Shown piece after piece: positions 9,388 to 27,269 of a stretch of 64,000 bases of DNA. The position numbers and the translations under genes were made by a program. Source of the stretch: Oscillospiraceae bacterium (GTDB lineage Bacteria; Bacillota; Clostridia; Oscillospirales; Acutalibacteraceae). The notes under the pieces were generated by a model. The model saw nothing but the letters and a program-made list of their open reading frames with translations. It was not told the origin of the DNA and ran no database searches. The DNA is taken from assembly GCA_031266365.1 (NCBI GenBank), contig JAISBE010000012.1, forward strand, positions 445-64,444, in the 5' to 3' direction. Every line of letters begins with the position of its first letter. The first letter of the stretch is position 1.

Positions 9388-9759
9388 TTATTTGTTACTA
9401 TACTTGTTGTTGTATACCTCCACTCCAACCAATGCCGCTAAGCCCGCAAGAGATTGTGCTAAGTCGATAACTTTTTGACTCCCTCCCGCTACGTTAACTA
9501 CATTTCCGACTACCTGACTAGCTAGTCCCACCGCCGCGGTTGAGTCCACCGCACCACCGGCGACTTGTGATATATTTGCCTCATTTAGCTGGGCACAGAC
9601 CGATCGCAATTCTTCGACAAATTCTTCGTAAGACAAACCGTCCAAGTAAGGTTTAAGAAAAGCTTCACCTTCTTTTTGAGTTTTCAGTTCTCCGAGTTTT
9701 CTAGCCAATTCCGGGCGTTTCACTAATTCATCAACAAATCTTTTCACTTGATCTTTCAT
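9388..9759 (-). CDS. Nif11-like long-leader GG peptide precursor
   Basis: About 68 aa of helical leader (MKDQVKRFVDELVKRPELARKLGELKTQKEGEAFLKP...NEANISQVAGG) followed by a Gly/Ala/Val-rich core. The leader architecture resembles Nif11-type leaders. Confidence 0.55.
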   Translation of the reverse strand: MKDQVKRFVDELVKRPELARKLGELKTQKEGEAFLKPYLDGLSYEEFVEELRSVCAQLNEANISQVAGGAVDSTAAVGLASQVVGNVVNVAGGSQKVIDLAQSLAGLAALVGVEVYNNKYSNK

Positions 9760-9846: not shown

Positions 9847-10245
9847 TCAAAAACTTTTATCGCCATTTTTTAATGGATGCTCACATTCATAGCCATGCAC
9901 ATCTTTTACTTGGCCCTTCCCATCTGTGGCATATATGCCATTATAAGTCAATATTAGCGATCCATTATTATAGCCGCCAGAAACATATTGCAGCAGCATA
10001 TCGTCGTTTGAATCTAGTTCCGCGGACTTATTCATAGCTAAATATCGATTCAATATTTTTCTGAAATCGCGGTAAGAAAGCTTGTCAAAATATGCCTTTG
10101 CTATTTCATATTTTTCTCTATCGGAAAGGTTAGAGCTAAAATCTCTTTTCAGTTGCTCATCTCGCTCAAGCTCTTCAAAAAACTTTTCTATTTCCTTGCT
10201 TTTCAGTTCTTTTAAAAAATCTTCTATTTCATTTTTCATACACAT
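9847..10245 (-). CDS. Nif11-like long-leader GG peptide precursor
   Basis: Leader ...FLKELKSKEIEKFFEELERDEQLKRDF...DDMLLQYVSGG, then a roughly 43-aa core YNNGSLILTYNGIYATDGKGQVKDVHGYECEHPLKNGDKSF. The second ATG at 10239 is an alternative start. Confidence 0.5.
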   Translation of the reverse strand: MCMKNEIEDFLKELKSKEIEKFFEELERDEQLKRDFSSNLSDREKYEIAKAYFDKLSYRDFRKILNRYLAMNKSAELDSNDDMLLQYVSGGYNNGSLILTYNGIYATDGKGQVKDVHGYECEHPLKNGDKSF

Positions 10246-12631: not shown

Positions 12632-12710
12632 CGCATTGCCCTCCCTATATTGCAAATTATCATATTTATATTCACGCGCATTATAATATAATTATTTAAG
12701 GACCATGGTT

Positions 12711-13460
12711 ATGTACATACGCACAGAAGGTCTCATAGTAATGGAACAGAATATAGGAGAAAAAGATAAACTCTTAACCATTTTGACAAAATGTGAAGGG
12801 CTAATCCGCGTATTTGCGCGCGGTGTGAAAAGCTTTCTCAATCGCAATGCCTCTGCAACGCAGCTTTTTTGCTATTCTGATTTAATATTATATAAAACTA
12901 AGGATAAATACGTTTTAACCGAAGCGAGTGCAAAAGTGCTATTTTTTGATCTCCGAAACGATATCGAAAAGCTCTCTTTGGCAGAATACTTTTGCGAATT
13001 AACCATCGCCTTAACGTCACATAATCACGAAATTGGCGACATTTTAAGCCTAATTTTAAACTCATTTCATTACCTGCAGACTGGAAAAATTTGCGCAAAT
13101 TTACTCAAACCTATTTTCGAAATAAAAATTCTATGTTTTTCCGGATATACGCCAAATCTTATTTGCTGCAAAGACTGTGCCGCCTACTGTGCATCGACAT
13201 TTTATTGGATTTTAAAAGAAGGCTCGATTTTTTGCGAAAATTGCTTTAAAAATCATTTTGCTCCAGGTTTGACGCTACACAGTGCTCCCTTAGCCGCCTT
13301 ACGCCACATTATTTACGCTGAGCCTAAAAAAACATTTTGGTTTGAACTTTCCTACGAAAGCAAAAAAGAACTAATTTACGCAGCAGAGCAGTATATTCTC
13401 TATTGCCTTGAAAAAGAGTTAAAAACGCTCGATTTTTACAATTTAATCGCTCAAAACTAA
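12711..13460 (+). CDS. recO: DNA repair protein RecO
   Basis: About 249 aa with an OB-fold-like N-terminus (MYIRTEGLIVMEQNIGEKDKLLTILT) and a C-terminal Cys cluster CCKDCAAYC...FCENC. The second ATG has the better RBS spacing. Confidence 0.82.
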   Translation: MYIRTEGLIVMEQNIGEKDKLLTILTKCEGLIRVFARGVKSFLNRNASATQLFCYSDLILYKTKDKYVLTEASAKVLFFDLRNDIEKLSLAEYFCELTIALTSHNHEIGDILSLILNSFHYLQTGKICANLLKPIFEIKILCFSGYTPNLICCKDCAAYCASTFYWILKEGSIFCENCFKNHFAPGLTLHSAPLAALRHIIYAEPKKTFWFELSYESKKELIYAAEQYILYCLEKELKTLDFYNLIAQN

Positions 13461-13821
13461 ACTTCGACCAACCAGCAATAAATCAAATACAATATCAAAA
13501 TAAGTTAAGATTTTTGGCATAGTGAACAATAATTTTCCGCCAATATTTTGACAATAAAAATATTTTTTTAATTCAATTGCAAAATTTGTAAATATATAAT
13601 ATATTATGTATTATAATGTCTATTTTTAGACTTTACTGTAAATAAATACAATTTAAGCCTAATTTAATTATCATTTATCCATCTTTTTGAATATTTTATC
13701 ACAATATCTCCTATTTATTAATTTTATAATAATATTTTATAGTTAAATTTTATAATATTTGTAAATATGCCGTAAAAATAGCAAAAAATCTAAAAAATAC
13801 AAAATCCGCGTTATTTAGCTC

Positions 13822-13850
13822 TTGACATCAAGAATAAATTATAGTAAAAT
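13822..13850 (+). promoter_or_regulatory. promoter candidate ahead of the cassette array
   Basis: TTGACA (13822-13827), 17-nt spacer, TAAAAT (13845-13850). Confidence 0.3.
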
Positions 13851-13915
13851 TAAATTAATATTTGATCAAATAGAAAACTATTATAATTTATAAAAACATG
13901 AAAGGAAGTATACCC

Positions 13916-14500
13916 ATGAACATTAATTTTCGTAAACTCAAAAACTCTTTATTAAGCCTCGGCTTAAGTGCTACCTTATTTTCTGCCTCCGGCCTAAAGA
14001 CGCTTGCTGAGCCGTTATCCCTGAGCTTTGTCAAGCAGCAGCTGAAGGACCTCCTCCCTGCCCCGACGGCGCCCCCTGATGAAATGGCGCGTGGTGTGCG
14101 TCTGCTACTAACGCGTGCGAGCCTATTTACACATGAGGGAGCCCAGCGGCAGGTTAAAGATGCCGATGGTCGAATCAGTAAGACGGAGGAGTGGGCTTCC
14201 GTTGTACGCTTGAATGCCGACACTTTCTACGTTAATACGCATAACTTAGCGAACGTGGCTGGAGTCGCGAAGTCTACGGTGAACGCGCGTCTGAAGGCAG
14301 CAAAAGTAATAAGAGTTTTTCTTACAGAGTCAGATATACGCTATGTGGAGGGGATAGTACCGACTCGCATCAGATCGAACTATTGGAGAAAAAGCACTCT
14401 AACGGCGGCTCCACCCATAGCGGCGCATGCACTGTTTCCCGACAAAGACTCTTCTGATGGCACAACTTGGGAGGAACAATTCGATTTAGCTGATGAATGA
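13916..14500 (+). CDS. cassette protein U1: Sec signal peptide plus GC-rich variable domain
   Basis: AAAGGAAG RBS 7 nt before the ATG. MNINFRKLKNSLLSLGLSATLFSASGLKTLA|EP. The upstream ATG is ACG or out of frame in sister cassettes, so the second ATG is used. Acidic aromatic tail TWEEQFDLADE. Confidence 0.7.
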   Translation: MNINFRKLKNSLLSLGLSATLFSASGLKTLAEPLSLSFVKQQLKDLLPAPTAPPDEMARGVRLLLTRASLFTHEGAQRQVKDADGRISKTEEWASVVRLNADTFYVNTHNLANVAGVAKSTVNARLKAAKVIRVFLTESDIRYVEGIVPTRIRSNYWRKSTLTAAPPIAAHALFPDKDSSDGTTWEEQFDLADE

Positions 14501-14521
14501 GCTGTGAGATGAAAACATCTT

Positions 14522-14542
14522 AATCGGGGGTACCCCCCGATT
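14522..14542 (+). repeat. cassette 3' palindrome (hairpin) after U1
   Basis: AATCGGGGGTACCCCCCGATT, a near-perfect inverted repeat. It is followed by the conserved CTTCACACCCCACCGCATTTAATTTAAATAAAAAATT. Confidence 0.75.
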
Positions 14543-14614
14543 CTTCACACCCCACCGCATTTAATTTAAATAAAAAATTAATATAATTTATAAAAACACG
14601 AAAGGAAGTTACCC

Positions 14615-15274
14615 ATGAACCTTAATTTTCGTAAACTTAAAAACTCCTTATTAAGCCTCGGCTTAAGCGCTACCTTATTTTGCACCGCCGGCCTGGCCGG
14701 AGTGCCCGCTTCAGCTAACGACCCGAACCCAGAGGCAACCAGTGCGTACCAACGGAAGGTAGTAACTATGCAGTACCGGAGCACAGCCGAGGGCGGAGAG
14801 TTTGCCAACCTGTCCGACTGGTTACACCAAGTCACAGACATGTCCACAGAGGCCAGAGAACAGGGAGCTGAGGTGGGCATATACTGGCAGGTCCGCGACC
14901 AGGTACTGTGCCTGAACTCGCAGATCCTGGCGGGCGATTTAGGTATTAAAGTTAACACGCTGAATAAACGACTGAAAGGGACATGCGGTCCGGCGCAGCC
15001 CTTAACGGTAGCACAAGTGAAAGAGATGGGGTACGCGAAACCAAGGAGCTGGTGCAAACGCGCTTTTTGGCCCAAGCGCACGACCCGCATGGTCGAGCCG
15101 CCGACGGCAGCGTGGATTCAAGGACCCGGGGCAAGCCTCGGCCGCCTGGCGACCGCCATCGCTGCCCCTGCACCGGCGCAACCGTTAGCCCCTCCGGTCT
15201 GTATCAGCCCTCAAATTGAAGATCATGATACGGACGGTTTGAATGACTGGGATCCTGACTTTGGATGGACTTGA
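14615..15274 (+). CDS. cassette protein U2
   Basis: MNLNFRKLKNSLLSLGLSATLFCTAGLAGVPASA|NDP. GC-rich body. Tail DWDPDFGWT. Closest paralogue is U3. Confidence 0.7.
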   Translation: MNLNFRKLKNSLLSLGLSATLFCTAGLAGVPASANDPNPEATSAYQRKVVTMQYRSTAEGGEFANLSDWLHQVTDMSTEAREQGAEVGIYWQVRDQVLCLNSQILAGDLGIKVNTLNKRLKGTCGPAQPLTVAQVKEMGYAKPRSWCKRAFWPKRTTRMVEPPTAAWIQGPGASLGRLATAIAAPAPAQPLAPPVCISPQIEDHDTDGLNDWDPDFGWT

Positions 15275-15288
15275 CCCTGAAAAATCTT

Positions 15289-15309
15289 AATCAAGGGTAC
15301 CCCCCGATT
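15289..15309 (+). repeat. cassette 3' palindrome after U2 (imperfect)
   Basis: AATCAAGGGTACCCCCCGATT, in the same position relative to the conserved tail. Confidence 0.65.
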
Positions 15310-15381
15310 CTTCACACCCCACCGCATTTAATTTAAATAAAAAATCATTATAATTTATAAAAACACGAAAGGAAGTTACCC

Positions 15382-16071
15382 ATGAACCTTAATTTTCGTA
15401 AACTTAAAAACTCCTTATTAAGCCTCGGCTTAAGTGCTACCTTATTTTGCACCGCCGGCCTGGCCGGCTTACCCGTTTTCGCTACCGACCCGAACCCAGA
15501 GGAAACCAGGGCGTACCGACAGACTGTAAAAGCTATGCTGTACCCGCGCACACCCACGGGCGTACAGTTTGACACCATGCAAGACTGGTTACACGGAGTA
15601 GCGGACGTGTCCACAGTGGCCAGAGCGCGTGGGGCTGTGGTGGGCATATTCTGGCGGGTCCCAGGTAGGGAATTGTGCCTAAACAAGCATATCATGGCGA
15701 GCGATTAAGGTCTTAAAGTTAACACGGTGGCGAAACGACTGAAACTGGTTAGATCCGGTCCGGCGCGTCGCTTACCGGTAGAACTCGCGATAATGCTGGG
15801 TGGCGCGAACCCAACGCACTGGTCCCGCCGCGCTTTCTGGCACGAGCCAAGACCCCCCGTGGGCGTGACACAAGCGGCAAACGGGGAAGCACTAGCCGAG
15901 GCGAGCCAAGGCCCGCTCGCGATACCACGAGCGGCCAATGCATCGGCAACAGCGTTAGCCCTTCCTGCCTCTACCAGCCCTGAAATTCAAAATTATGACT
16001 GGGATCTCGACGATACACCCTTTAGAGAGTACCCTGACCCGCATGACGACGCGGACGACTTTTGGCGCTGA
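15382..16071 (+). pseudogene. cassette U3, interrupted by one in-frame TAA (15706-15708)
   Basis: The two track ORFs (15382..15708 and 15727..16071) are in the same frame. U2 has GAT TTA GGT ATT AAA GTT AAC where U3 has GAT TAA GGT CTT AAA GTT AAC. Confidence 0.65.
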
Positions 16072-16167
16072 GCCGGGTCGGTCACGGCACCCTGGTGGAC
16101 TAACTGCGTAAGTGCCGGCAGCACGCCCAACCACCGGACTGGGATAAGCTTGAAAATGAAACATCGT

Positions 16168-16189
16168 AATCGGGGGTACCCCCACGATT
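16168..16189 (+). repeat. cassette 3' palindrome after U3
   Basis: AATCGGGGGTACCCCCACGATT. Confidence 0.7.
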
Positions 16190-16262
16190 CTTCACACCCC
16201 ACCGCATTTAATTTAAATAAAAAATTATTATAATTTATAAAAACATGAAAGGAAGTATACCC

Positions 16263-16982
16263 ATGAACATTAATTTTCGTAAACTCAAAAACTCTTTATT
16301 AAGCCTCGGCTTAAGCGCCACCTTATTTTGCACCGCCGGCCTGGCCGGCTTACCCGTTTTCGCTACCGACCCGATACGCGAAGTGGCCTTAAGGGAATGC
16401 GTTATCGGAATCGGAAGGGGGGCAATCAGGTACAGCCGCGGAAAGGCTAGGGCCGTATTTGTAGCTATTGTGAATCAACTAGTAAACCTTGCGTCAGTGG
16501 CTGCCAAGCGTGGAGTCATCGGTCCAGATGGACGGCCAGTGCCGCTACATTGCGTACTACCACTAATCCCGCTGGGACGCGGCGCATTCATGGTGCATAC
16601 ACAACTGCTAGCTGAGGTCGCGAAGGTAAGTAAATCTTCGGTTAACTCAAACTGGTGCGCAATAGGTTATAACAGCTCAACGCCGACTCCCGCGCAGATA
16701 GCACAACTAGAGATGCAACCACACCAGTGTCGGAGCTGGACGGTCCGCACGCTACGGACACCCGAATCTACCGGCGAACCGGAGGTCCACGCCGACGAGG
16801 CGCACACGGATGCTCCGACAAGCACACCAGGGGGATCCTTCGCGCAGGCTGACTGGCCGGAACTCTCGCTACCCGAGCAACCCGAGGGCTACGACCCATT
16901 AGCAGACACAGACACTGGGAGCGGCGAATACGGCTTTTTTGAACGTGACGTCGCTACCGAAGACCAAAGGTGGCTTTTTTGA
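16263..16982 (+). CDS. cassette protein U4
   Basis: MNINFRKLKNSLLSLGLSATLFCTAGLAGLPVFA|TDPIRE... Paralogue of U5. Contains ...SKSSVNSNWCAIGY...CRSWTVRTL. Confidence 0.7.
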   Translation: MNINFRKLKNSLLSLGLSATLFCTAGLAGLPVFATDPIREVALRECVIGIGRGAIRYSRGKARAVFVAIVNQLVNLASVAAKRGVIGPDGRPVPLHCVLPLIPLGRGAFMVHTQLLAEVAKVSKSSVNSNWCAIGYNSSTPTPAQIAQLEMQPHQCRSWTVRTLRTPESTGEPEVHADEAHTDAPTSTPGGSFAQADWPELSLPEQPEGYDPLADTDTGSGEYGFFERDVATEDQRWLF

Positions 16983-17065
16983 CCTTGCCGTCGCTCCCGA
17001 CGACCCTTGGCCTGTACTTAGTCCCAGTGGTTCAAAAGAACCCTTTTAAATGAAAAATTGTAATC

Positions 17066-17079
17066 GGGCGCTCTCGCCC
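17066..17079 (+). repeat. cassette 3' hairpin after U4 (different sequence, same position)
   Basis: GGGCG-CTCT-CGCCC followed by ATTTTTCACACCCAACCGCATTTAATTTAAAT. The stem sequence is replaced but pairing is preserved, and a T-run follows. Confidence 0.6.
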
Positions 17080-17155
17080 ATTTTTCACACCCAACCGCAT
17101 TTAATTTAAATAAAAAATTATTATAATTTACAAAAACATGAAAGGAAGTATACCC

Positions 17156-17884
17156 ATGAACCTTAATTTTTGTAAACTTAAAAGCTCCTTATTAAGCCTC
17201 GGCTTAAGTGCCACCTTATTTTGCTCCAGCCTGGCCTGCTTCCACGTTTCCGCTAACGACCCGATACGCGAAAAGGATTTAAGGGCACAACTTATCGAAC
17301 TCAAAAGAAAAGCCGCGCCAGTCAAGTATCAGCGCGGACGGGCTGGGGCCGTATTTGCAGCTCTTTGGAATGAACTACTAACAATTGCGAATGAGGCTGC
17401 CGCGAGTGGAGTCATAGATGAAGCCGGAAGGCCAGTGCCGCTGCATACCGTACTATCACTAATACGGCTGGGGCCGACAGCATTCGCAATGAACACACCC
17501 GCCCTAGCGAAGGACTTAGGGAGAAGTAAATCTTGTGTTAACAACCAGTTGTGGAAACTAGGTTATACCAGCTCTCCGCTGACTACCGAGCATATGGCAC
17601 AACTAGGGATGCGACCACACCAGTGTCGGAGCTGGACGGTCCGCACGCTCTGCCCACCCGAAAATACCGGCGAAGATGGGGGCTCTGCCGACGAGGCACT
17701 CACGAGTAATCCCCCAGAATCAACCGGCGACTCCTTCGCGCCCGCTGAATGGCCGAGACTATCGCTACCCGATCGACCCGCGGGCGCGGGCCGCTTGGCA
17801 CTCACAGACACTGGGCGAGGCGACGGTGGCTTTTTTGCCCTTGACCATGCTCCAGCCGGCGCCAGCTGGTTTGACCTTTACTGA
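17156..17884 (+). CDS. cassette protein U5
   Basis: MNLNFCKLKSSLLSLGLSATLFCSSLACFHVSA|NDPIRE... Contains LAKDLGRSKSCVNNQLWKLGY...CRSWTVRTL. Tail ASWFDLY. Confidence 0.7.
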   Translation: MNLNFCKLKSSLLSLGLSATLFCSSLACFHVSANDPIREKDLRAQLIELKRKAAPVKYQRGRAGAVFAALWNELLTIANEAAASGVIDEAGRPVPLHTVLSLIRLGPTAFAMNTPALAKDLGRSKSCVNNQLWKLGYTSSPLTTEHMAQLGMRPHQCRSWTVRTLCPPENTGEDGGSADEALTSNPPESTGDSFAPAEWPRLSLPDRPAGAGRLALTDTGRGDGGFFALDHAPAGASWFDLY

Positions 17885-17904
17885 GCTTAGGAATGAAAAA
17901 TCTT

Positions 17905-17925
17905 AGCCGAGGGTTACCCCCGATT
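17905..17925 (+). repeat. cassette 3' palindrome after U5 (degenerate)
   Basis: AGCCGAGGGTTACCCCCGATT followed by CCTCACACCCCACTGCATTTAATTTAAAT. Confidence 0.55.
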
Positions 17926-17997
17926 CCTCACACCCCACTGCATTTAATTTAAATAAAAAATCATTATAATTTATAAAAACACGAAAGGAAGTTACAC

Positions 17998-18603
17998 ATG
18001 AACCTTAATTTTCGTAAATTCAAAAGCTCTTTATTAAGCCTCGGCTTAAGCGCTACCGTATCTTTCGGCTTCGGCCTACCCGGCTTCCACGCTTTCGCCA
18101 TTGATCCAATACCGACCACGCGGGGCGCCTGGAGGGCCGCGTTGTTGAGCGTGAGGCGATACCACGAGCCGGGCAAGAGAGGCAACCACGCTGAAAAGGC
18201 CGATACCAAAGCGCGGTGGCTTAGGCTGGTGGCATTGGCGCCCGGGCCCGAAGGCAATGAAATACTTGGTGCGGACACAGGTGTCGTAGAGCTCGGTGAC
18301 GGGTTCATCCTAATAAACTCGCGACTAGTGGCAAAGAACTTGGGGCGAAGTAAATCGTGCGTCAACGGACTCCTGGCGGAGCTAACTTACGAAAGACAAC
18401 CGATAGCTGGTGAGCACAGGCAAGTGTTGCGCGGGCTCACGAAAAAACCTCGTGAGTGGTCTCTGCGCAAAATCAAGCCGCAAGGCGCGCAGGACGGGGG
18501 CCGAGCCACGACCCACTCGCCCGATACTAGACCTTTCAACCCTGATCAGGACGGCGCGCCTACATGGGATCCTGTCGATGACTGCGACTTTGATGAGATC
18601 TGA
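17998..18603 (+). CDS. cassette protein U6
   Basis: MNLNFRKFKSSLLSLGLSATVSFGFGLPGFHAFA|IDP... Contains LVAKNLGRSKSCVNGLLAELTY...PREWSLRKI. Tail WDPVDDCDFDEI. Confidence 0.7.
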   Translation: MNLNFRKFKSSLLSLGLSATVSFGFGLPGFHAFAIDPIPTTRGAWRAALLSVRRYHEPGKRGNHAEKADTKARWLRLVALAPGPEGNEILGADTGVVELGDGFILINSRLVAKNLGRSKSCVNGLLAELTYERQPIAGEHRQVLRGLTKKPREWSLRKIKPQGAQDGGRATTHSPDTRPFNPDQDGAPTWDPVDDCDFDEI

Positions 18604-18611
18604 ACAGTCTT

Positions 18612-18633
18612 AATCGGGGGTACCCCCACGATT
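18612..18633 (+). repeat. cassette 3' palindrome after U6
   Basis: AATCGGGGGTACCCCCACGATT followed by CTTCACACCCCACCGCATTTAATTTCAAC. Confidence 0.7.
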
Positions 18634-18705
18634 CTTCACACCCCACCGCATTTAATTTCAACAGAAAATTGTTATAATTTATAAAAAAATGAAAGGAAGT
18701 TACAC

Positions 18706-19860
18706 ATGAAACTTAATTTTCGTAAACTTAAAAACTCCTTATTAAGCCTCGGCTTAAGTGCTACCTTATTTTGCACCGCCGGCCTCGCCGGCTTACCCGT
18801 TTTCGCCGAGGGACCTGCCACAATGGATGAGTGGCGCGAAGCGATACTACGCATCCTGGCCGGGATGCCAGAGTACTCTGCGCGGGGGAAGGACGCAGAA
18901 GCCCGCACATCCACTCTGTTGCACAACCAACTGGCAGTGAGCCGACAAGCACTAGCAAACGGCGTGAAACCACCCCTGCAACCAGTGGAAGGGGGGTTCA
19001 CGATCCACTTGTCGGCATTCGCGAGATACACCGGCATTACCGAACGCCAAGTGGAAAGGCAGCTAGTACGCGGAGGGGCACACTTAGCCGGGCGTGGTGA
19101 TGGCTACTGGAGCTGGTACACACTAGTGTCGGTGGACGACGGTGCAGGTCGCGCGGAAGGCGACATAGTTGAAGCCACCGCCGTTCCTCCCATGGTTGAC
19201 GATCGTGGCCAATTGGAAGTCCAGGTAATAGAAAAATACAAGAAGCTGGAACCAAATTTAGCACTACGCAAGACCGCACGGGGAGAGAACCACCGTCAGT
19301 GGCTGAGAGATTTAATCACGATATCGGAAGAAACCCTCGAGCATGGACAGCCGGACCTAGCGACCGTCGTATTACTGGGCGACGGAACCTCCCTCGCTGT
19401 AAACGCGGGCGCGTTGAGGCGTTTGACTGGTATCTGCAAATCGGCGACGAATTACCGCTTACAAGCCGAGGGACTCCACAAACGCAGCTTAGCGGACGCC
19501 AGCGAGCTGGACGCACGCTTTGGGAGACCATTAGGTTTAGCGGACCGCCGGCACTGGGAAGTCTGGACACCCACCCCGCCCGCTGCGATCGACTATTCTG
19601 AAAAAGATAATCCCTGGTTAACCAGGGCCTTTACGGCCGCGAACTGGTCGCGCCGACCCGGGGAACAACCAGCCATCGCGAGAGGGACGGACGGCAAAAC
19701 CCTATGGGTACGGGTCGAGGAGCTCAGCCGAAAATTAGACACAACGGATCTTGACGTTATGAGGCACCTTGAAAACTTGGGGTACCGGCTCACGGGAACT
19801 AAACAGTGCCGGCTCGCCACAGGTGAAGAAGTGGCATTGACGATCTGGGCACAGCGTTAA
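18706..19860 (+). CDS. cassette protein U7 (largest, about three internal HTH-like repeats)
   Basis: MKLNFRKLKNSLLSLGLSATLFCTAGLAGLPVFA|EGP... 384 aa. Three segments of the form hydrophobic strand, helix, turn, helix: FTIHLSAFARYTGITERQVERQL, SLAVNAGALRRLTGICKSATNYRL and TLWVRVEELSRKLDTTDLDVMRHL. Confidence 0.7.
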   Translation: MKLNFRKLKNSLLSLGLSATLFCTAGLAGLPVFAEGPATMDEWREAILRILAGMPEYSARGKDAEARTSTLLHNQLAVSRQALANGVKPPLQPVEGGFTIHLSAFARYTGITERQVERQLVRGGAHLAGRGDGYWSWYTLVSVDDGAGRAEGDIVEATAVPPMVDDRGQLEVQVIEKYKKLEPNLALRKTARGENHRQWLRDLITISEETLEHGQPDLATVVLLGDGTSLAVNAGALRRLTGICKSATNYRLQAEGLHKRSLADASELDARFGRPLGLADRRHWEVWTPTPPAAIDYSEKDNPWLTRAFTAANWSRRPGEQPAIARGTDGKTLWVRVEELSRKLDTTDLDVMRHLENLGYRLTGTKQCRLATGEEVALTIWAQR

Positions 19861-19988
19861 GAACGAAGTTGCACCCCCCGACGACCGCCCCTGGAGCCAG
19901 CGGTGGTGCCTTGGACCCGGCAAATCAGCTTGGGTTCTTCGAACATCAAGACAACGGAAATTCTCAATGAGCCTTGGCATTAAAAAAT

Positions 19989-20014
19989 CTTACCCGGGGG
20001 TGCATCCTCCGATT
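19989..20014 (+). repeat. degenerate cassette 3' element after U7 (first of two)
   Basis: CTTACCCGGGGGTGCATCCTCCGATT followed by CTTAACATCCCACCACATTTAATTTAAG. Recognisably homologous to the tail block but decayed. Confidence 0.5.
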
Positions 20015-20097
20015 CTTAACATCCCACCACATTTAATTTAAGACGACCACACACACCTGGTACGGCGAGGCGCGTGAACGGTGAGATGAAATATCGA

Positions 20098-20118
20098 AAT
20101 CGAGGGTTACCCCCGATT
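20098..20118 (+). repeat. cassette 3' palindrome (second copy after U7, precedes the U8 head)
   Basis: AATCGAGGGTTACCCCCGATT followed by CTTCACGCCCCACCGCATTTAATTTAAATAAAAAATT. Confidence 0.65.
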
Positions 20119-20190
20119 CTTCACGCCCCACCGCATTTAATTTAAATAAAAAATTATTATAATTTACAAAAACATGAAAGGAAGTTACAT

Positions 20191-20952
20191 ATGAAACTTA
20201 ATTTTCGTAAACTCAAAAACTCCTTATTAAGCCTCGGCTTAAGCGCCACCTTATTTTGCAGCTCCGGCCTGGCCAGCTTACCCGTTTTTGCTGAACCTGT
20301 AGTACTATCTGCTCTCAATATGCGTCTAGACGAAAAGAAGAAGCACTGGAGCGACTTTGACGTGGATAGCATGGTGAACACTGAACTGACATATACAGAG
20401 GAGCTGTTAGCCCATGGGGCAGTTGATGAAAAAGGTATGTGGAGTCCCGGTGAAGGGCACCTCGCCGTCGTATACGTAGGTTCTGGAGTTGTCGCAATTA
20501 AGATACAGACGTTATCAAAAAGGGCGGACAGAGCTAAAAGTCGATTAAACAAGGTACTTGCTTCTGCAGGTTATACCCCTTTAACACCGACTGAGGGTCA
20601 CAAGCACATCCTAGCGTCACGACTAAAAGTAAACCCACATGACAGATCTTTAGTGTCCTGGTCGTTCCGAATCAAACCGGATCGCCGCGCGGACGCAGAC
20701 AGGGCATCTAGTGACGCTGAGGCTACGGATGACCCTGCATTACAATTCCCAAGATTAGCAGAGGAACCAGCAGATGCTATGATTTTTTCCAGAATGCAAG
20801 GCGAAGCTACACAGCACGTCTTGCAATTTGGCCAGGGTGATTTAAGGCCGCACCCGGCCAAATTTGTTGCACCAGCTTCTGAGGACCGGATTATTGTTAG
20901 ATGCAGTAAAGACAGGATCCCCGAATGCGCATGCTGCTATCGCGTTGACTGA
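20191..20952 (+). CDS. cassette protein U8 (terminal, less GC-rich, no conserved tail element)
   Basis: MKLNFRKLKNSLLSLGLSATLFCSSGLASLPVFA|EP... The body is visibly less GC-rich than U1-U7. The array ends without the palindrome block. Confidence 0.65.
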   Translation: MKLNFRKLKNSLLSLGLSATLFCSSGLASLPVFAEPVVLSALNMRLDEKKKHWSDFDVDSMVNTELTYTEELLAHGAVDEKGMWSPGEGHLAVVYVGSGVVAIKIQTLSKRADRAKSRLNKVLASAGYTPLTPTEGHKHILASRLKVNPHDRSLVSWSFRIKPDRRADADRASSDAEATDDPALQFPRLAEEPADAMIFSRMQGEATQHVLQFGQGDLRPHPAKFVAPASEDRIIVRCSKDRIPECACCYRVD

Positions 20953-21095
20953 TGTAAAGTTAAAATATACAGCTCCTTTGCTTTTTGATGCCACCTGAAT
21001 AATTATTATGTGATTTTCAAAATTTTAAGTTGCACGACCAGCCATAAGTATGACGGATTTTGCGAAGGTCGATATTATTAACTCACCTAGTCTTC

Positions 21096-21124
21096 TTGAT
21101 GTTTTTGCAAAAATATGTTATAAT
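21096..21124 (+). promoter_or_regulatory. promoter candidate for galU (extended -10)
   Basis: TTGATG (21096-21101), 17-nt spacer ending in TGT, TATAAT (21119-21124). Confidence 0.4.
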
Positions 21125-21159
21125 AATATATGTAAATCAAAATAATTTAGGAGAAATAA

Positions 21160-22029
21160 ATGCAGATCAAAAAAGCCGTCATACCCGCCGCCGGTCTTGG
21201 AACACGAGTTTTACCTGCAACAAAAGTCATGCCAAAAGAAATGCTCCCGATCGTGGACAAGCCTGCCATTCAATACATAGTAGAAGAAGCGGTGGCATCA
21301 GGAATCGAAGATATATTAATTATCACAAGTCGTGGCAAAGACTTGATAGAAGACCACTTTGATAAAACTCCAGAATTAGAAAGCCGCCTATATGGAACCC
21401 AAAAATATAAGCTTCATCAAGATATCCTCGATATTTCAAATCTTGCAAATATATATTTTCTTCGCCAAAAAGAAGCAAAAGGGTTGGGGCATGCCGTTTT
21501 ATGCGCGCGATCATTCGTGGGAAATGAGCCTTTCGCCGTTTTATATGGAGATGACGTAATCATTGGCGAAAAGCCCGTTACCAAGCAACTAATGGAAGTT
21601 TACGAAAAATTCGAGCGCGGTGTTTTAGGCGTTAAAAAGGTCTCCAGTGACGTTATTCAAAACTACAGTTCAATAAAAATAGACCCAATATATGACAATA
21701 TTTATAGTTGTACAGATATGATCGAAAAGCCCTCCAAAGATCAGGTCTTATCGCTCTATTCCATCTTGGGACGCTGCATACTTCCACCTGAGATATTTGA
21801 AGTATTAGAAAATACAAAGCCGGGCCGCGGTGACGAGATTCAATTAACCGATGCCATGTGCATTATAGCGCAAAGCACCGGTTTTATGGCAGTGGATTTT
21901 ATTGGCAAACGTTACGATATGGGAGATAAATTAGGCATAATGAAAGCTTCTGTTGAAACCGCTCTAACTCATCCAGAAATTGGAGAAAGCTTTAGAGGAT
22001 ATCTAAAGAAAGTTTGCATGAATTTATAA
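21160..22029 (+). CDS. galU: UTP--glucose-1-phosphate uridylyltransferase
   Basis: KAVIPAAGLGTRVLPATKVMPKEMLPIVDKPAIQYIVEEA, the canonical GalU N-terminus. 289 aa. Confidence 0.9.
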   Translation: MQIKKAVIPAAGLGTRVLPATKVMPKEMLPIVDKPAIQYIVEEAVASGIEDILIITSRGKDLIEDHFDKTPELESRLYGTQKYKLHQDILDISNLANIYFLRQKEAKGLGHAVLCARSFVGNEPFAVLYGDDVIIGEKPVTKQLMEVYEKFERGVLGVKKVSSDVIQNYSSIKIDPIYDNIYSCTDMIEKPSKDQVLSLYSILGRCILPPEIFEVLENTKPGRGDEIQLTDAMCIIAQSTGFMAVDFIGKRYDMGDKLGIMKASVETALTHPEIGESFRGYLKKVCMNL

Positions 22030-22112
22030 TCACCCATATAGCAAAATTGAGTATATAAATAAAAAGAAATTTAACTGCACAGCTGGGTTTGCTTGCAAAA
22101 GGAGGTAAATGC

Positions 22113-22271
22113 ATGCTCACCGATTGCATTATAGCCGCCATTGCAGTAGCATTCGTAGTTATCCCCATTTATAAAGGCATTATGCATAAAAATGAAAATA
22201 AATTTTGCAGAAATTGCAAATGCAGTAGCTGCGAATTTTGTACTATCTCAGATAATAAAAATAAACTTTGA
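22113..22271 (+). CDS. small Cys-rich membrane protein (FeoB-associated Cys-rich family-like)
   Basis: AAAGGAGG RBS, then MLTDCIIAAIAVAFVVIPIYKG (one TM helix), then CRNCKCSSCEFC. Confidence 0.4.
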   Translation: MLTDCIIAAIAVAFVVIPIYKGIMHKNENKFCRNCKCSSCEFCTISDNKNKL

Positions 22272-22301
22272 GAGTACATTTTGCCTTTTTCCAAGCTATT
22301 T

Positions 22302-22964
22302 TTATAAATAAACCTGCTTCGCAAAAACTGGAGGTCCAGAAAGCAGATACATCTGATCGGAAAGCAATTTTCCATGATATACATCATGTGTCACGATTAT
22401 AGTTATGATATTTTTTGCGTTTTCTTTAATTAATTTAACAATTTTTCTTTTTAAAGTTAAATCCAATCCCACAAACGGCTCATCCAACAGAAGAATATCT
22501 TTTGGAGAAGCCAGCGCTCGAGCGATAGAAACTAACTGCTGCATACCACCGCTTAGATTTTCAACTTTTTGATCACAATATTCGTTTAATCCCATTAATT
22601 TCAGCCATTTTTTCGCTTGTGATTTTTTGTAATCGTCACTTATGCTTTTCCAAATTTCTCGCATTGAAAATTTCTCTATTTGAGGATTTTTCCCTATTAC
22701 ACACGCGATATTTTTCTCTGCTGTTTCCGAAAGCAAAAGCCTTTTATCTTGAAAAACGCAAGAAATTCGCTTACCCTTAACTCCATCAATAGTTCCATAA
22801 TCTGGCATATAAATACCCATAATCAGATTTAGAATTGTAGTTTTTCCTATGCCAGAACGTCCATTTAAAAAAATTATTTTAGAATTTTCAAAGCATATTG
22901 AAAAATCAGCTAAGATTTTTTTTCCACCAAAAGCTTTCACAACATGATTTATATGAATCGCCAT
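22302..22964 (-). CDS. ABC transporter ATP-binding protein (NitT/TauT-type importer)
   Basis: Walker A GRSGIGKTT, signature LSGGMQQ, Walker B LLLDEP. Forms an operon with the permease and binding protein upstream. Confidence 0.85.
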   Translation of the reverse strand: MAIHINHVVKAFGGKKILADFSICFENSKIIFLNGRSGIGKTTILNLIMGIYMPDYGTIDGVKGKRISCVFQDKRLLLSETAEKNIACVIGKNPQIEKFSMREIWKSISDDYKKSQAKKWLKLMGLNEYCDQKVENLSGGMQQLVSIARALASPKDILLLDEPFVGLDLTLKRKIVKLIKENAKNIITIIVTHDVYHGKLLSDQMYLLSGPPVFAKQVYL

Positions 22965-23049
22965 TGAAATTTCTCCTATTTTTCCAAATAATCAAAAAAA
23001 TATTTAACATGGAAAAATTAAAAATACAGCTACTAAATTAATTTCCGTA

Positions 23050-23874
23050 TCAAGCATAATTTCTAAAAATTCCTTTTAATACGATTTTCTCTAAAATTGA
23101 GCTAAAAAAAGCGATAATTATAGTCCACGCAAACAGGTTTATTGTATTCAGATGAACCTGCGAAAAATATATTTCCATCCCTATTGAATTTCTGCTGTTA
23201 CTTATAACTTCCGCTGAAATGCCAGATTTCCAAGCAAGACCAATTCCACTCACACAAGACGAGAAAAAATGCGGTTTTATAGCGGGAAAGTAAATCATTT
23301 TCATTTTGTTCCAGCGACTAAAACGAAAAACTTTACTCATTTCAATCAGATTTGGCTCAACCGATGCCACTCCTTTTAAGATATTACTATATAATATTGG
23401 AAATGCGATCAAAAACGATATAAAAGATGGAATCCAAAAAGATGGAACCCAAATTAAAGCTAAAATAATAAAACAAGCTATTGGAGTCGTTTTGATTATG
23501 TGAATCAGTGGATTTAAAAAATATTTTATAAATTTAGATAAGTTTGTTACAAACGCAATTGTAATTGAAAATACGATTGCTAGAAAAAATCCACATAAAG
23601 TCCTCAAAGTAGATATAAAAATTTTGGGCCAAGCTGTGCAAGAGATAAAAATCAAGTCTATTATTTTACAAAACACAGAATAAGGATTTGCGATAATAAT
23701 ATCATTATTCACAGAAAGGTAAAATATTTGCCATAAAATAACCCAAATAATTAATAAAATCATCTGTTGGGCGAAATTCCACAATTTTGATTTGTATTTA
23801 TTATTAAGCTTTATTGAGTTTGTGAATTTTTTTTTAATTATTTTAAGCAACAAATTTACTGTAGAATTCTTCAT
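23050..23874 (-). CDS. ABC transporter permease (NitT/TauT family-like)
   Basis: 274-aa multi-TM ORF between the substrate-binding and ATPase genes. It overlaps the upstream gene end. Confidence 0.75.
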   Translation of the reverse strand: MKNSTVNLLLKIIKKKFTNSIKLNNKYKSKLWNFAQQMILLIIWVILWQIFYLSVNNDIIIANPYSVFCKIIDLIFISCTAWPKIFISTLRTLCGFFLAIVFSITIAFVTNLSKFIKYFLNPLIHIIKTTPIACFIILALIWVPSFWIPSFISFLIAFPILYSNILKGVASVEPNLIEMSKVFRFSRWNKMKMIYFPAIKPHFFSSCVSGIGLAWKSGISAEVISNSRNSIGMEIYFSQVHLNTINLFAWTIIIAFFSSILEKIVLKGIFRNYA

Positions 23875-24838
23875 CCGGCAAACTGCCCCCTACAGATTCA
23901 GGGTTTAAGCTGTGTAAAATCTGTAAAAATCCTTTCATGCTCTGTCTCACATTGAACAACGAATTTATACCGCATAAAGGAATTGCTTTAACGGCAATAT
24001 CTTTTTCCATGACGTTATATTTTTCACAAAGCAAAGCCGAAGCTTCTAAATCCTCATTTACAAATGAAAATGATTTTTCATAAAGCTTCAAAAATTTCTC
24101 CACTTCAGTGTCATTATTTATAAAGTCAACACTGGCGGTTAAACATCCCATAGGTGGCTCTGCTCCATTTATATCTTTCCATTCTTTGGTAATATTAACA
24201 GTCTTGCTTATAGAAGAATCTTTAAAAAGCACCTCTGTTGCGAATGGTTCCGGTAATAAAGCACAATCGCATTTCCCCGCTAACAACAACGAAGCAACCT
24301 GAGCATGACTTGATATATACTCAAGTTTTATATCAGAATCATTTAAGATATTGTGGTTTTGCAGTATATGTAAAAATATATATTCCGGAGCTGCGCCTTT
24401 TCCAGCCAAATAAAGAGTTTTGCCTTTAAAATCTTCAAGCGAATTTAAATTGCCATCTTTTGAAAGGATAAACAAGCTTCCCGATGCCCCTGACGCGATA
24501 ACTTTTATTTTACGTTGAGTTTTATGATATAAAATAGAAGCTAAATTTAACGGAATCGCTGCAGCATCTATTTCTTTTTTGATAATTTTACTGACTATCT
24601 CCTCAGGACTATTGTACATAGATATATGATAATTATATTTTCCTGCATCTTCCATGAGTTTTAGCATTGTTATTGCACTGGGACCACGTAAGCATGCGAT
24701 CTTTATTTTATTTAATTGTGTATTTTCAACATTTTTTTGACATGCTATTAAAATAAAAGATAATAAAATAGCAATCGTTAAAACTTTATATAAATTAATC
24801 CTCAACTTGCGGTTCAAAATCACATTGACAGTGTTCAT
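23843..24838 (-). CDS. ABC transporter substrate-binding lipoprotein (NMT1/SsuA-like)
   Basis: Start trimmed to MNTVNVILNRKLRINLYKVLTIAILLSFILIAC (lipobox LIAC). A TTG about 30 nt downstream is an alternative start. The family call is tentative. Confidence 0.65.
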   Translation of the reverse strand: MNTVNVILNRKLRINLYKVLTIAILLSFILIACQKNVENTQLNKIKIACLRGPSAITMLKLMEDAGKYNYHISMYNSPEEIVSKIIKKEIDAAAIPLNLASILYHKTQRKIKVIASGASGSLFILSKDGNLNSLEDFKGKTLYLAGKGAAPEYIFLHILQNHNILNDSDIKLEYISSHAQVASLLLAGKCDCALLPEPFATEVLFKDSSISKTVNITKEWKDINGAEPPMGCLTASVDFINNDTEVEKFLKLYEKSFSFVNEDLEASALLCEKYNVMEKDIAVKAIPLCGINSLFNVRQSMKGFLQILHSLNPESVGGSLPDEEFYSKFVA

Positions 24839-25238
24839 GAATACACCCACAATTTTTATCACAAATCGAATTAAAATCAAATTCCAAACCTTCACCGCAA
24901 TTTGGGCAATCAATTGGGCTTTTTAATAATACATCCTTGGAAAGACAAATAATTTTTTCGCAATTTGGACAAGGTATTTCGTAAAATGAATCAGAATTTT
25001 TTTCGCCTACGTCATTATCATCGTAATAGTCCTCTTCCAAAACACAGAGATTTTCATCTATTTCATCAACCTGATCCTTTAGATCACTATGACTTTGTTC
25101 TAGCTCAGAAACTTCCAAAGTTATGTCATCTAATAAATCGATTATCTCTTTTAAAACCTTATTTTCTGATTTTGTTTCGTCCAGCTGCAGCCCTTGAAAT
25201 AAACCTTTAATATAAGCCGATTTTTCAGTAACTGTCAT
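24795..25238 (-). CDS. acidic coiled-coil plus zinc-ribbon protein
   Basis: 147 aa with CPNC...CPNC plus a C-terminal Cys/His cluster CDKNCGCIHEHCQC. Very acidic central segment. Confidence 0.5.
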   Translation of the reverse strand: MTVTEKSAYIKGLFQGLQLDETKSENKVLKEIIDLLDDITLEVSELEQSHSDLKDQVDEIDENLCVLEEDYYDDNDVGEKNSDSFYEIPCPNCEKIICLSKDVLLKSPIDCPNCGEGLEFDFNSICDKNCGCIHEHCQCDFEPQVED

Positions 25239-25320
25239 ATCTTTTTATCTCCTCAATTATTTTTTTATAGAGCTGTCTTAAAAGCTAAGTAAATTCAAAA
25301 CCACGTTAAAATTTCTGTAC

Positions 25321-25878
25321 CTACGCTCGCTCCATATATTCACCGGTTCGTGTATCCACACGAATAACTTCATCTTGATCGATGAACAAAGGAACGCGAA
25401 TTTGTGCCCCCGTTTCCAATATTGCTGGTTTTGTTGCATTTGTGGCCGTATCACCTTTGAATCCTGGGTCGGTTTCTACTATTTTAAGCTCAACGAAAAA
25501 AGGAGGTTCCACACCAAAAACGTTACCTTTGTGAGACAAAACTTTACACTCCATATTTTCTTGCACAAATTTAAAATTATCGGATAAAACGTTTTTATTA
25601 ATCGGCAATTGCTCATATGTTTCGTTATCCATAAAATAATAGAGATTACCGTCATTGTAAAGATATTGCATGGTTTTGCGTTCCACATAGGCAGGCGGAT
25701 ATTTATCGTTGGGGTTAAAAGTTTTCTCGATAACACTACCCGTAATCACATTTTTTAATTTTGTCCTGACAAACGCCGCGCCTTTTCCTGGCTTAACGTG
25801 TTGAAATTCTATAATAGAAAAAACATTGCCATCCATCTCAAAAGTCACGCCATTTCTAAATTCACCTGCTGATATCAT
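25321..25878 (-). CDS. efp: elongation factor P
   Basis: [47 protein letters not shown]. 185 aa. Confidence 0.95.
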
Positions 25879-25905
25879 GTGATTTCCTCCTGAATTTCAC
25901 CCATA

Positions 25906-26994
25906 TTAAATTATTAAAAGATCTTTGGTTATGTTAGTTAGGTTTTCGCAGCCACTTTCTGTCACCAAAACCATATCTTCTATTCTAACACCAAATTCTC
26001 CCTTTAAATATATCCCCGGTTCAACCGTAATTACCATCCCGGATTCTAAAACAGTTTGGTTGCCCTGCGCAAGTCTTGGATTTTCATGAATGCAAAGCCC
26101 CACACCATGGCCAGTTGAATGCCCAAAACATGCACCATAACCTTCTTTTGCAATAACACTTCTTGCCGCATCATCGGCATCTCCCGCTTTAATTCCAGCT
26201 TTTATAGATTTTATACCCTCTAATTGGGCCTGCAACACAATTTCATAAACGCGGCGCTGCTTATCGCTCACAGATCTCACCGCAACAGTCCTCGTCATAT
26301 CGCTGTTGTAGCCATCTAAATTCGCACCTATATCCATAGTTAATAGTTCGCCACTTTGGATTTTTTTATCACCCGGTTCGCCATGTGGCAGCGAAGTATT
26401 CTCACCACTGACGACTATTAAATCAAAAGCCACGCTTTTTGCCCCGTTTCTTTTCATAAAAAACTCGAGGTCAAGAGCGATTTGTTTTTCTGTCATGCCA
26501 GCAGAGATGTTGTTAAGAACGTGTTTAAAGGCATCTTCCGTCAGCTTTTGAGAAGATTTAATTCTCTCAATTTCGTCATATGATTTAATTGCGCGCATAT
26601 TTTGTAAAATACTATCCAGCTTGCCGTCGCATAAAGATTTTACATTTAAGCTAGAAAATATCTCTTCCAGGCGTTCTTTTTGAGATACTTTAAGCTCTTT
26701 TTCGATTAAAACACCTTTTATATTATGTTTGCGAATTAAATTTTGCAACGTATTTTCAAGGTTATCCATTAATATAACTTCGCACACATTTGCGTTCTTT
26801 GCGGCCGCCTCATAATAACGAAAATCGACTAAATTATAAATATTACCACGAGCGGCAAAAATATAGCCCATATGAGAGTTAAAGCCTGAAAGGTAATAAC
26901 GATTCTCAGGAGAAGTGATTATAGCTGCATCAAAAGCAGCGGAATCAACTTCACAAAATAGAGCTTTAATGAATTTTTCCACACGTTTTAGCAA
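25906..26994 (-). CDS. pepP: M24 family Xaa-Pro aminopeptidase
   Basis: C-terminal metal-ligand motifs [24 protein letters not shown] and EPG...RIED. Start trimmed to the TTG at 26994, where AGGGGG lies 6 nt upstream. Classic pairing with efp. Confidence 0.85.
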
Positions 26995-27092
26995 ATAATA
27001 CCCCCTATTTTTATGACACCAAATCGGCAATCACAGTTTTCGTGCTGTTTAAAATTCAAAAAACACATGCAAAACTGCTCTAAAAAAATAAA

Positions 27093-27269
27093 TTATTTAA
27101 ATTTACGCTTTCTAGCCGCTTCCGACTTTTTTTTACGTCTAACCGAAGGTTTTTCATAAGCTTCCCTTTTGCGGACTTCCGAAATAACTCCAGCCTTTGA
27201 ACACTGTTTTTTAAACCTTTTTAGCGCATTTTCAAGAGATTCATTATCTTTAATTCTAATTTCAGCCAT
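27093..27269 (-). CDS. rpsU: 30S ribosomal protein S21
   Basis: Not in the ORF track (58 aa). My own translation is [68 protein letters not shown] upstream. Confidence 0.88.

Follow-up and report, generated by a model that had tools for sequence, protein, structure and literature searches.

Organisation of the array

The window analysed here, which is the whole stretch of 64,000 nucleotides of contig JAISBE010000012.1 from an Oscillospiraceae bacterium (assembly GCA_031266365.1), has a GC content of about 35% and contains a single GC-rich island at 13.9-21.0 kb, reaching 52-62% GC. Indeed, 2-kb windows over 14-20 kb have a GC content of 0.52-0.56, against 0.31-0.41 in the rest of the window. 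As delimited by open reading frames (ORFs), base composition and flanks, this island consists of eight paralogous genes in tandem, named U1 to U8 (13898..20952, + strand), located between recO on the left (12705-13460; RecO match) and galU on the right (21160-22029; GalU match). Seven of the eight ORFs are intact and encode 194-384 amino acids (aa). A 20-mer of the signal-peptide coding region is present in eight exact copies in the window, all of them within the array.

The mature domains of U4, U5 and U6 are members of Pfam family PF10416, the winged-helix Initiator-binding domain (IBD) of the Trichomonas protein IBP39, and the other units are assigned to it on weaker evidence. Each of these three genes, all on the + strand, encodes a predicted signal peptide, an IBD-type winged-helix core and a linker with an acidic/aromatic tail, namely: (i) U4 (16263-16982) starts with the predicted signal peptide MNINFRKLKNSLLSLGLSATLFCTAGLAGLPVFA (16263..16364), which has an n-region of charge +3, a hydrophobic core of about 20 aa, V-F-A at positions -3 to -1 and a predicted cleavage after VFA, continues with a core carrying KVSKSSVN and CRSWTVRT (16365..16763; PF10416 E 4.2e-6, 27.2 bits; E 2.8e-12 with the independent hidden Markov model, HMM, described below) and finishes with a linker and tail (16764..16982; net charge -16, isoelectric point, pI, 4.1) that ends in FFERDVATEDQRWLF, the last 15 aa being the extreme of the protein for D/E plus W/F/Y; (ii) U5 (17156-17884) has a signal peptide recognised by its layout (17156..17254), a core with GRSKSCVN and CRSWTVRT (17255..17659; PF10416 E 8.7e-8, 32.7 bits; independent HMM 5e-16; AlphaFold and Foldseek) and a linker and tail ending in GASWFDLY (17660..17884; charge and 15-mer composition); (iii) U6 (17998-18603) has a signal peptide recognised in the same way (17998..18099), a core with GRSKSCVN and PREWSLRK (18100..18483; PF10416 E 3.5e-6, 27.5 bits; independent HMM E 8.6e-16) and a linker and tail ending in TWDPVDDCDFDEI (18484..18603; charge and 15-mer composition). 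The W-D-P-x-D-F motif of the U6 tail is also found in U2 (DWDPDFGW) and in P0017 (GWDPDFF), a homologue devoid of signal peptide.

The five remaining units, which are likewise encoded on the + strand, are more diverged. U1 (13916-14500) encodes a signal peptide, a diverged IBD core (GVAKSTVN) and an acidic tail, with a sub-threshold Pfam match (E 0.16, 12.4 bits) and an independent HMM E-value of 1e-7. U2 (14615-15274) encodes a signal peptide, a diverged core (GIKVNTLN; PRSWCKRAFW) and the tail DWDPDFGWT, and U3 (15382-16071) is its paralogue, with an in-frame TAA at 15706-15708 in this window. Neither U2 nor U3 has a Pfam match; aligned jointly against the signal-peptide-less IBDs using hhalign, they give E 8.8e-5 and a probability of 60% in the correct register, and are the weakest units by sequence. 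U7 (18706-19860) encodes a signal peptide and a 350-aa body with an IBD-like middle module (19207-19581) and no acidic tail (PF10416 E 0.0073, 16.7 bits, residues 225-259; independent HMM E 1e-4). It is about 1.6 times as long as the other units and looks like three tandem modules containing a helix-turn-helix (HTH); three IBD repeats were considered for it, and support was obtained for the middle module alone, the outer two aligning in register without significance. U8 (20191-20952) encodes a signal peptide and a diverged core (DRAKSRLN; VSWSFR; Pfam E 0.013, 15.9 bits; HMM E 1.3e-8), and its C-terminus (20683-20952) is Cys-rich, with ...RIPECACCYRVD in place of an acidic/aromatic tail. The lowest GC contents of the array are those of its edges (U8 0.49, U1 0.52), which could reflect a greater age of these two units or a donor of lower GC content.

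Family and fold of the encoded proteins

The assignment to the IBD family follows from PF10416 matches above threshold, from an independent HMM, from a profile-profile alignment and from two AlphaFold models for which 1PP7/1PP8 is the best PDB match. With a PF10416 gathering cut-off of 25 bits, U5, U6 and U4 are above it and U7, U8 and U1 below; apart from PF10416, a single weak match was obtained in all units at E <= 1 (IF2_N in U7, E 0.17). The independent HMM, built from nine foreign signal-peptide-less proteins only and run on the 611 six-frame ORFs of the window, recovered U5, U6, U4, U8, U1 and U7 (E 5e-16 to 1e-4), the next, unrelated, ORF being at 0.26. The alignment of the bacterial cores with the signal-peptide-less IBDs by hhalign has a probability of 99% and an E-value of 2e-18. 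Between units, BLASTP of the cores gives 1.7e-10 for U5-U6, 2e-6 for U5-U8, about 0.003 for U1 with U4/U5 and 0.003-0.015 for U2 with U5/U6, and the mature cores of the adjacent close pairs are 50% (U2-U3) and 53% (U4-U5) identical.

The AlphaFold model of the U5 core has a predicted local distance difference test score (pLDDT) of 90.6 and a predicted template-modelling score (pTM) of 0.81. That of the U2 core, whose input alignment contained three eukaryotic IBDs, reaches a pLDDT of 81.9 and a pTM of 0.73, and shows the same order of secondary structures as U5. In Foldseek searches, the IBP39 IBD (1pp7/1pp8) is the top match of the U5 model (probability 1.0, template-modelling (TM) score 0.48-0.59, 131-133 columns) and fills the top six positions for the U2 model (E 2e-4, TM 0.60/0.65); both models align to the complexes of the IBP39 IBD with initiator (Inr) DNA over 119-133 columns (TM 0.48-0.65, probability 1.0). 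The next structural match is the tandem winged helix of Pol I A49. U4-U6 have intact copies of the recognition-helix motif (R/K)SKSS(V/I)N and the wing motif LRxW(T/S)xR; in U1, U8 and U7b these motifs are partial, and in U2/U3 they are degenerate. The cores are basic (net charge +4 to +10, pI 9-10.6) and the tails acidic (net charge -6 to -16, pI 4.1), and in U1-U6 no other 15-mer of the protein is as acidic-plus-aromatic as the final one, whereas U7 and U8 have no such tail.

These results bear on an earlier sequence-only reading of the locus, whose quoted peptides were all found at the positions given and whose assumed starts are the true ones, that is, the second ATG after the ribosome-binding site (RBS), e.g. 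16263 for U4. It had proposed a core common to otherwise divergent units, and this is confirmed: the similarity extends beyond the adjacent paralogue pairs, as the U5-U6 and U5-U8 matches and the six units found by the foreign-sequence HMM show. Corrections apply to U3, which carries the in-frame TAA, and to U7, where support is limited to the middle module, the source of 'RRHWEVW'. The acidic/aromatic tails that it had seen in six of the eight units are those of U1-U6. The shared pattern that it described, GRSKSxVN, RxWxxR and an acidic/aromatic tail, is the standard layout of small parabasalid IBD proteins, and the tails, judged by sequence, are inherited with the domain and not convergent, because the named Trichomonas, Tritrichomonas and Histomonas IBD proteins have the same ending. 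Between the two folds that it had suggested, the winged HTH agrees with the models, both of which best match winged-helix DNA-binding domains; an excisionase/MerR-type winged HTH was discarded, with no Pfam match and the mycobacteriophage Xis only at rank 38 (E 3.7).

The array proteins might alternatively be ordinary bacterial regulators of the winged-HTH or excisionase-like type, their likeness to the IBD being convergent or too distant to be meaningful and their N-terminus serving as a membrane anchor. Winged helices are indeed ubiquitous, and weak matches of the Crp and MarR types appear low in the lists. However, the IBP39 IBD tops both independent models over the whole 120-130 residues or so, well beyond the HTH, the Pfam IBD is the sole family above its threshold, the wing motif and the tail are held in common with parabasalid proteins, and no bacterial homologues were found in GTDB or among 1.84 billion representatives, so that this explanation appears highly improbable, the more so with the Xis match as poor as stated above.

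Expression and export signals

All eight units are preceded by a perfect TATAAT box within TTATTATAATTTATAAAAAC, followed by the identical RBS GAAAGGAAGT. The 5' module of U4 (16168..16262, + strand), for instance, comprises a GC-rich hairpin (16168-16188), the TATAAT-containing box (16225-16244) and the RBS GAAAGGAAGT (16247-16256). Equivalent modules are found upstream of every unit, that of U1 being devoid of hairpin. A consensus promoter scan missed these per-unit promoters, which have a weak -35 element, and the perfect -10 boxes were located by pattern. On average, the 5' modules are 88% identical between units at the DNA level versus 45% for the bodies (about 70% in two close pairs); the cassette has therefore been homogenised by gene conversion or has spread recently.

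The N-termini of all units are 31-34 aa long and differ very little from one unit to the next, with an n-region of charge +3, a hydrophobic core and an A-x-A-like VFA, ASA, VSA, AFA or TLA before the mature part. They are predicted to be Sec type I signal peptides without a lipobox. A lipoprotein reading of 'LFC' was rejected: the Phe at -1 is not a lipobox residue according to the usual lipobox rule, and the Cys is missing in U1 and U6. The mature proteins have masses of 18-24 kDa, except for U7 (about 39 kDa).

A GC-rich palindrome (AATCGGGGGTACCCCCCGATT and variants) follows the stop codons of U1-U7 (14522-14542, 15289-15309, 16168-16188, 17066-17079 as a variant, 17905-17925, 18612-18632 and 20098-20118). 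The hairpin folds as RNA at -19.7 kcal/mol (z -3.7); it has no U-tract on the + strand, and a terminator scan flags the minus strand only. This palindrome may terminate transcription, stabilise the mRNA or serve as a site of recombination.

Strain variation and integrity of the assembly

The junctions recO-U1, U1-U2, U3-U4-U5 and U8-galU are all found again in assemblies made independently (L087, L086, L001). This bears on a possible assembly artefact, in which eukaryotic DNA would have been mis-joined into a bacterial contig. The sharp GC discontinuity is what such a chimera would produce, and other assemblies break within the array, but low-GC promoter, RBS and signal-peptide modules are interleaved with, and fused in frame to, every GC-rich body, and the recovery of both the array and the flank junctions elsewhere makes the artefact hardly credible.

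Between strains, variation seems to be concentrated in the array. Five coding changes are clustered there, four of which alter the protein and one of which is a stop codon, whereas the flank 20231-30320 (10,090 bp) is identical in the third assembly, L001. At the other end, 521 bp of L087, covering positions 13075-13595 of the window (end of recO and just downstream), are identical to the window. The stop codon is that of U3, which is intact in assembly L086 (Joint Genome Institute, JGI, sample 3300042612), with TTA (Leu) at L086 269 instead of TAA; the remaining two strain differences in U3 (15743, 15860) are non-synonymous as well. The U2 tail (15120-15167) has four single-nucleotide polymorphisms within 48 bp in L087, three of them at non-synonymous positions, and the AT-rich region upstream of U1 (13596-13756) shows an indel or rearrangement of about 130-170 bp, also in L087.

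Such clustering of changes next to an unchanged 10-kb flank, the nonsense codon of U3 in this strain and the degenerate motifs of several units would fit decaying cargo of a horizontal transfer, with no current function. Set against this are seven intact ORFs out of eight and a U3 intact in another sample, the perfect TATAAT box, identical RBS and intact signal peptide of all eight units, the confident predicted folds of U5 and U2, and a high GC content that has been maintained and not ameliorated. Decay is consequently regarded as improbable.

Foreign origin and relatives

The bodies of the units have a GC content of 0.49-0.59 (52-59% except U8, 49%) and a GC content at third codon positions (GC3) of 0.44-0.63, against 0.36-0.40 and 0.28-0.39, respectively, in neighbouring genes. 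No relatives were found in the 185,579 species genomes of GTDB, and a word-indexed search with U5 gave no match beyond the window's own genes. A full HMMER pass over 1.84 billion representatives yielded 17 matches at E <= 1e-3, of which seven are the units of the window and nine are IBDs devoid of signal peptide; two unrelated HTH-repeat proteins are also listed. The latter, P0008 (ENA, 834 aa) and P0012 (391 aa), contain 5-9 or more tandem HTH_7-like repeats ('LRAQGYT.GQLAEHFGV...LTLADITPE') unrelated to the IBD, an unusual architecture.

The nine signal-peptide-less matches (138-287 aa, on contigs of 1-3 kb) all belong to PF10416 at 53-123 bits and share IAVNT..L..LGRSKSSVN, LRxWTxR and an acidic/aromatic C-terminus. 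A profile built from them retrieves 112 PF10416 proteins, of which the named ones are all from Trichomonas vaginalis, Tritrichomonas foetus, T. musculus or Histomonas and consist, as in the array units, of an IBD, a Pro-rich linker and an acidic/aromatic tail. Among the protists compared in a published study, PF10416 is reported to be restricted to trichomonads (PMC11978803). The array proteins thus correspond to entire IBD proteins of the parabasalid type to which a signal peptide has been added. The contigs carrying the signal-peptide-less IBD genes have a GC content of 44-61%, no Shine-Dalgarno sites and a low coding density, and short IBD-bearing contigs of the same sample series reach 54-61% GC, with a gene GC3 of 0.73-0.79.

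The nearest homologues that were looked up all (6/6) come from JGI samples 3300042593, 3300042596, 3300042616 and 3300042618, one being also present in SRR14710907, while the bacterial units recur in 3300042612 and the galU flank in SRR14710922. The bacterium and the likely donor lineage are therefore present in one sample series. Scans of the JGI metagenome_contigs collection for the IBD motif and the signal peptide gave no match, the window included, so that this collection evidently does not hold these samples. A Lake Mendota (TYMEFLIES) habitat, suggested by neighbouring IMG identifiers, was rejected: that project uses Ga045xxxx and SRR273-274xxxxx identifiers, and the identifiers of the series are absent from its sample table. 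A viral donor was also rejected, with no relatives in IMG/VR and no significant fold match in BFVD.

Monophyly of the bacterial units was recovered in 28/200 and 15/100 neighbour-joining bootstrap replicates, and U7b, U1 and U8 match signal-peptide-less proteins better than their sibling units; the neighbour-joining trees do not decide between one transfer and several. Two signal-peptide-less IBD genes, P0019 (L084 1152-1601) and P0014 (L085 485-1108), on contigs of 54% and 61% GC, respectively, lack the Cys cluster of the trichomonad type. The wing motif RDWSFRRL(K/V)P is common to these two genes, U6 and U8, and 43/100 bootstraps place the two genes together with the bacterial units; they are candidates for the donor lineage.

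Genomic surroundings and host bacterium

The array is surrounded by ordinary Firmicute housekeeping and cell-wall genes, including aminoacyl-tRNA synthetases, PASTA penicillin-binding proteins, FtsW, MraY, EF-P and a ribosomal-protein cluster. The leucyl-tRNA synthetase (LeuRS) is 63-71% identical to those of many Oscillospirales, the best matches being Caproiciproducens and Acutalibacteraceae metagenome-assembled genomes from animal guts, none of them close, and the bacterium is placed in the Oscillospirales as an Acutalibacteraceae-like member. An identity as a termite endosymbiont, prompted by the IBD match, is not provable from the window: the family is absent from GTDB species genomes, the LeuRS identity is that given above, and the GC content of the locus is not diagnostic of the small-genome clade.

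The stretch between recO and U1 (13500-13900) is extremely AT-rich (16-19% GC). Within it lies the region's best match to a full sigma-70-like promoter (TTGACA-17-TAAAAT, 13822-13850). Opposite the units, long minus-strand ORFs are present (14578-15090, 15348-15695, 17964-18365, 18672-19037 and 20157-20552), all of which end in ...QNKVALKPRLNKEFLSLRKL..., the reverse complement of the signal-peptide region; they appear to be shadow ORFs of GC-rich DNA and not genes. Elsewhere in the window, Pfam gives no match at E <= 1e-5 for the minus-strand ORFs 9388-9759, 9847-10245 and 49610-50302 (123-230 aa), and a neighbouring ORF (8059-8940) is DUF7005.

Proposed function

The explanation favoured here, by a modest degree, is that the array consists of horizontally acquired, Sec-exported bacterial copies or mimics of parabasalid IBD transcription factors. 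The analysis shows membership of the family and fold, bacterial signals added for expression and export, a foreign base composition and an origin of the nearest homologues in the same samples; secretion, contact with a host, entry into the nucleus, DNA binding and the direction of any effect are inferred. A GC-rich eukaryote of the parabasalid type would have donated one or several IBD genes to a gut bacterium of the Oscillospirales (Acutalibacteraceae-like), in which every copy would have come to lie behind a common cassette, native and low in GC, made up of the -10 box, the RBS and the signal peptide. Duplication would then have enlarged the array, perhaps along with repeated capture, and the 5' cassette would have stayed uniform. 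The monoderm cell would export mature proteins of 18-24 kDa (about 39 kDa for U7) through Sec and, should the bacterium live inside a parabasalid or on its surface, these could enter the host cell and, given their small size, the nucleus; proteins of 18-24 kDa are small enough to diffuse through the nuclear pore. There, the basic winged-helix core could bind Inr-like core-promoter DNA as IBP39 does, and the inherited acidic/aromatic tail could engage the partner used by endogenous IBD proteins, so that the array proteins would act as mimics or competitors of the host initiator-binding factors.

The sequence-only reading had put forward a nucleomodulin-like effector role as pure speculation. 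The present results strengthen this idea considerably, because a transcription factor family known only from eukaryotes is combined with foreign GC content, with bacterial expression and secretion signals on each copy and with nearest homologues from the same samples.

Several points weigh against acquired, exported IBD factors acting in a parabasalid. Known clostridial endosymbionts are enclosed by a host membrane, so that an extra translocation step would be needed, and no sign of an intracellular or protist-associated lifestyle was found among the genes of the window. The LeuRS has at most 71% identity to any GTDB species, and placement in the endosymbiont clade is thus unproven. The signal peptides were predicted from their sequence layout. 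The TM-scores of the structural matches are moderate (0.48-0.65), the recognition-helix motif is degenerate in U2, U3, U7 and U8, and the U3 copy of this strain is a pseudogene. IBP39 was not reached by sequence searches of the PDB, whether with U5 alone or with three profiles, built from the bacterial cores (A2), from the homologues devoid of signal peptide (A6) and from the two sets combined (A7), and DNA-contact residues are therefore not mappable by sequence; the link to IBP39 itself (1PP7/1PP8) is through the Pfam profile and the predicted fold, not through direct sequence similarity. Finally, a search of the literature for the accessions of the sample series, aimed at its habitat, gave no match.

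Some of these points would suit exported proteins acting outside the host nucleus, on extracellular DNA, at the protist surface or on a lumenal target, or by titrating a cytoplasmic partner through the tail with a repurposed winged helix. A Sec signal by itself reaches the extracellular space only, related endosymbionts are membrane-enclosed as stated above, half of the units have a degenerate DNA-recognition motif, and no nuclear localisation signal (NLS) was identified. However, the full eukaryotic layout is kept, including the C-terminal motif of trichomonad proteins, which argues for an intracellular eukaryotic partner; furthermore, the cores are still strongly basic, and U4-U6 retain (R/K)SKSxVN and RxWxxR. 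Action outside the nucleus is accordingly considered rather unlikely.

A more specific version of the favoured reading, in which the exported proteins do enter the nucleus, is put forward tentatively, as a possibility that falls short of being probable. According to it, a protist-associated member of the Clostridia would secrete a host-derived IBD family into the parabasalid nucleus, where it would compete for or redirect Inr-dependent initiation, and the cassette would also be a capture platform recruiting host IBD paralogues repeatedly. The latter idea arises because U7b, U1 and U8 are nearer to signal-peptide-less proteins, because the units are not resolved as monophyletic and because their bodies have a donor-like GC content. 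If correct, this would be the first case of bacterial effectors directed at recognition of the core promoter. To our knowledge, IBP39-type factors are the only known proteins that recognise the Inr, which is the chief core-promoter element in trichomonads. In parabasalids, the IBD family has expanded enormously, and most of it is uncharacterised. Eight copies tagged for secretion in a bacterium would be a testable handle on bacterial manipulation of protist gene expression, and would extend host-to-symbiont gene flow in clostridial endosymbionts to a new transcription factor family. In addition, small foldable IBD variants could help to establish how DNA is recognised and what the conserved acidic/aromatic tail does, and the array shows concerted evolution of an export cassette beside fast-evolving effector bodies.

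Comparison with known systems

Phytoplasma effectors of the SVM/SAP type (e.g. SAP11) are small proteins exported by Sec from a monoderm intracellular bacterium into the host cytoplasm, some of which act on nuclear host transcription factors. The array resembles them in organisation only, in that the signal peptide is conserved and the mature parts vary widely. The two are unrelated in sequence, SVM_signal having no Pfam match at E <= 1 in any unit, and the phytoplasma effectors are not host-derived DNA-binding domains. Transcription activator-like (TAL) effectors recognise DNA through repeats, are delivered by type III secretion and carry explicit NLSs. Like these and other nucleomodulins, the array proteins combine a DNA-binding module with an acidic C-terminal region for host promoters, an action that is predicted in their case; unlike TAL effectors, they are whole borrowed host factors with a Sec export signal.

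The closest resemblance in profile, predicted fold and motifs (IAVNT..L..LG(R/K)SKSS(V/I)N and LRxW(T/S)xR) is to the parabasalid IBD proteins (PF10416; Trichomonas vaginalis IBP39, 1PP7/1PP8), whose small members are likewise built of an IBD, a Pro-rich linker and an acidic/aromatic C-terminus. However, the array units are encoded by a bacterium, with -10 boxes of the sigma-70 type and Shine-Dalgarno sites, and have a signal peptide of 31-34 aa that is absent from the eukaryotic members. In addition, the Cys cluster of most eukaryotic members (FC..W.RCL.CG) is replaced in the array units, and identity is just 25-40%.

The nearest biological parallel is offered by Acutalibacteraceae endosymbionts of termite parabasalids (Trichonympha, Pseudotrichonympha and Devescovina), in which 42 eukaryote-like genes were described, including Rab, kinases and Myb, about 20 of them with signal peptides (Takahashi 2023, PMC10579323). 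About half of these genes carry Sec or lipoprotein signals and were read as secreted host manipulators, and the Myb factors are closest to those of Trichonympha (PMC10579323). The present locus shares with these endosymbionts the broad bacterial group, a low GC content (about 35% here versus 27-38% in the clade) and genes of parabasalid affinity with signal peptides, including transcription factors. Unlike in those genomes, whose 42 genes do not include the IBD, a single family is represented here, by eight genes in tandem that share a homogenised 5' cassette. Taken together, these comparisons suggest that the array would add the IBD family to the host-derived, secretion-tagged eukaryote-like effectors already known in protist-associated bacteria.

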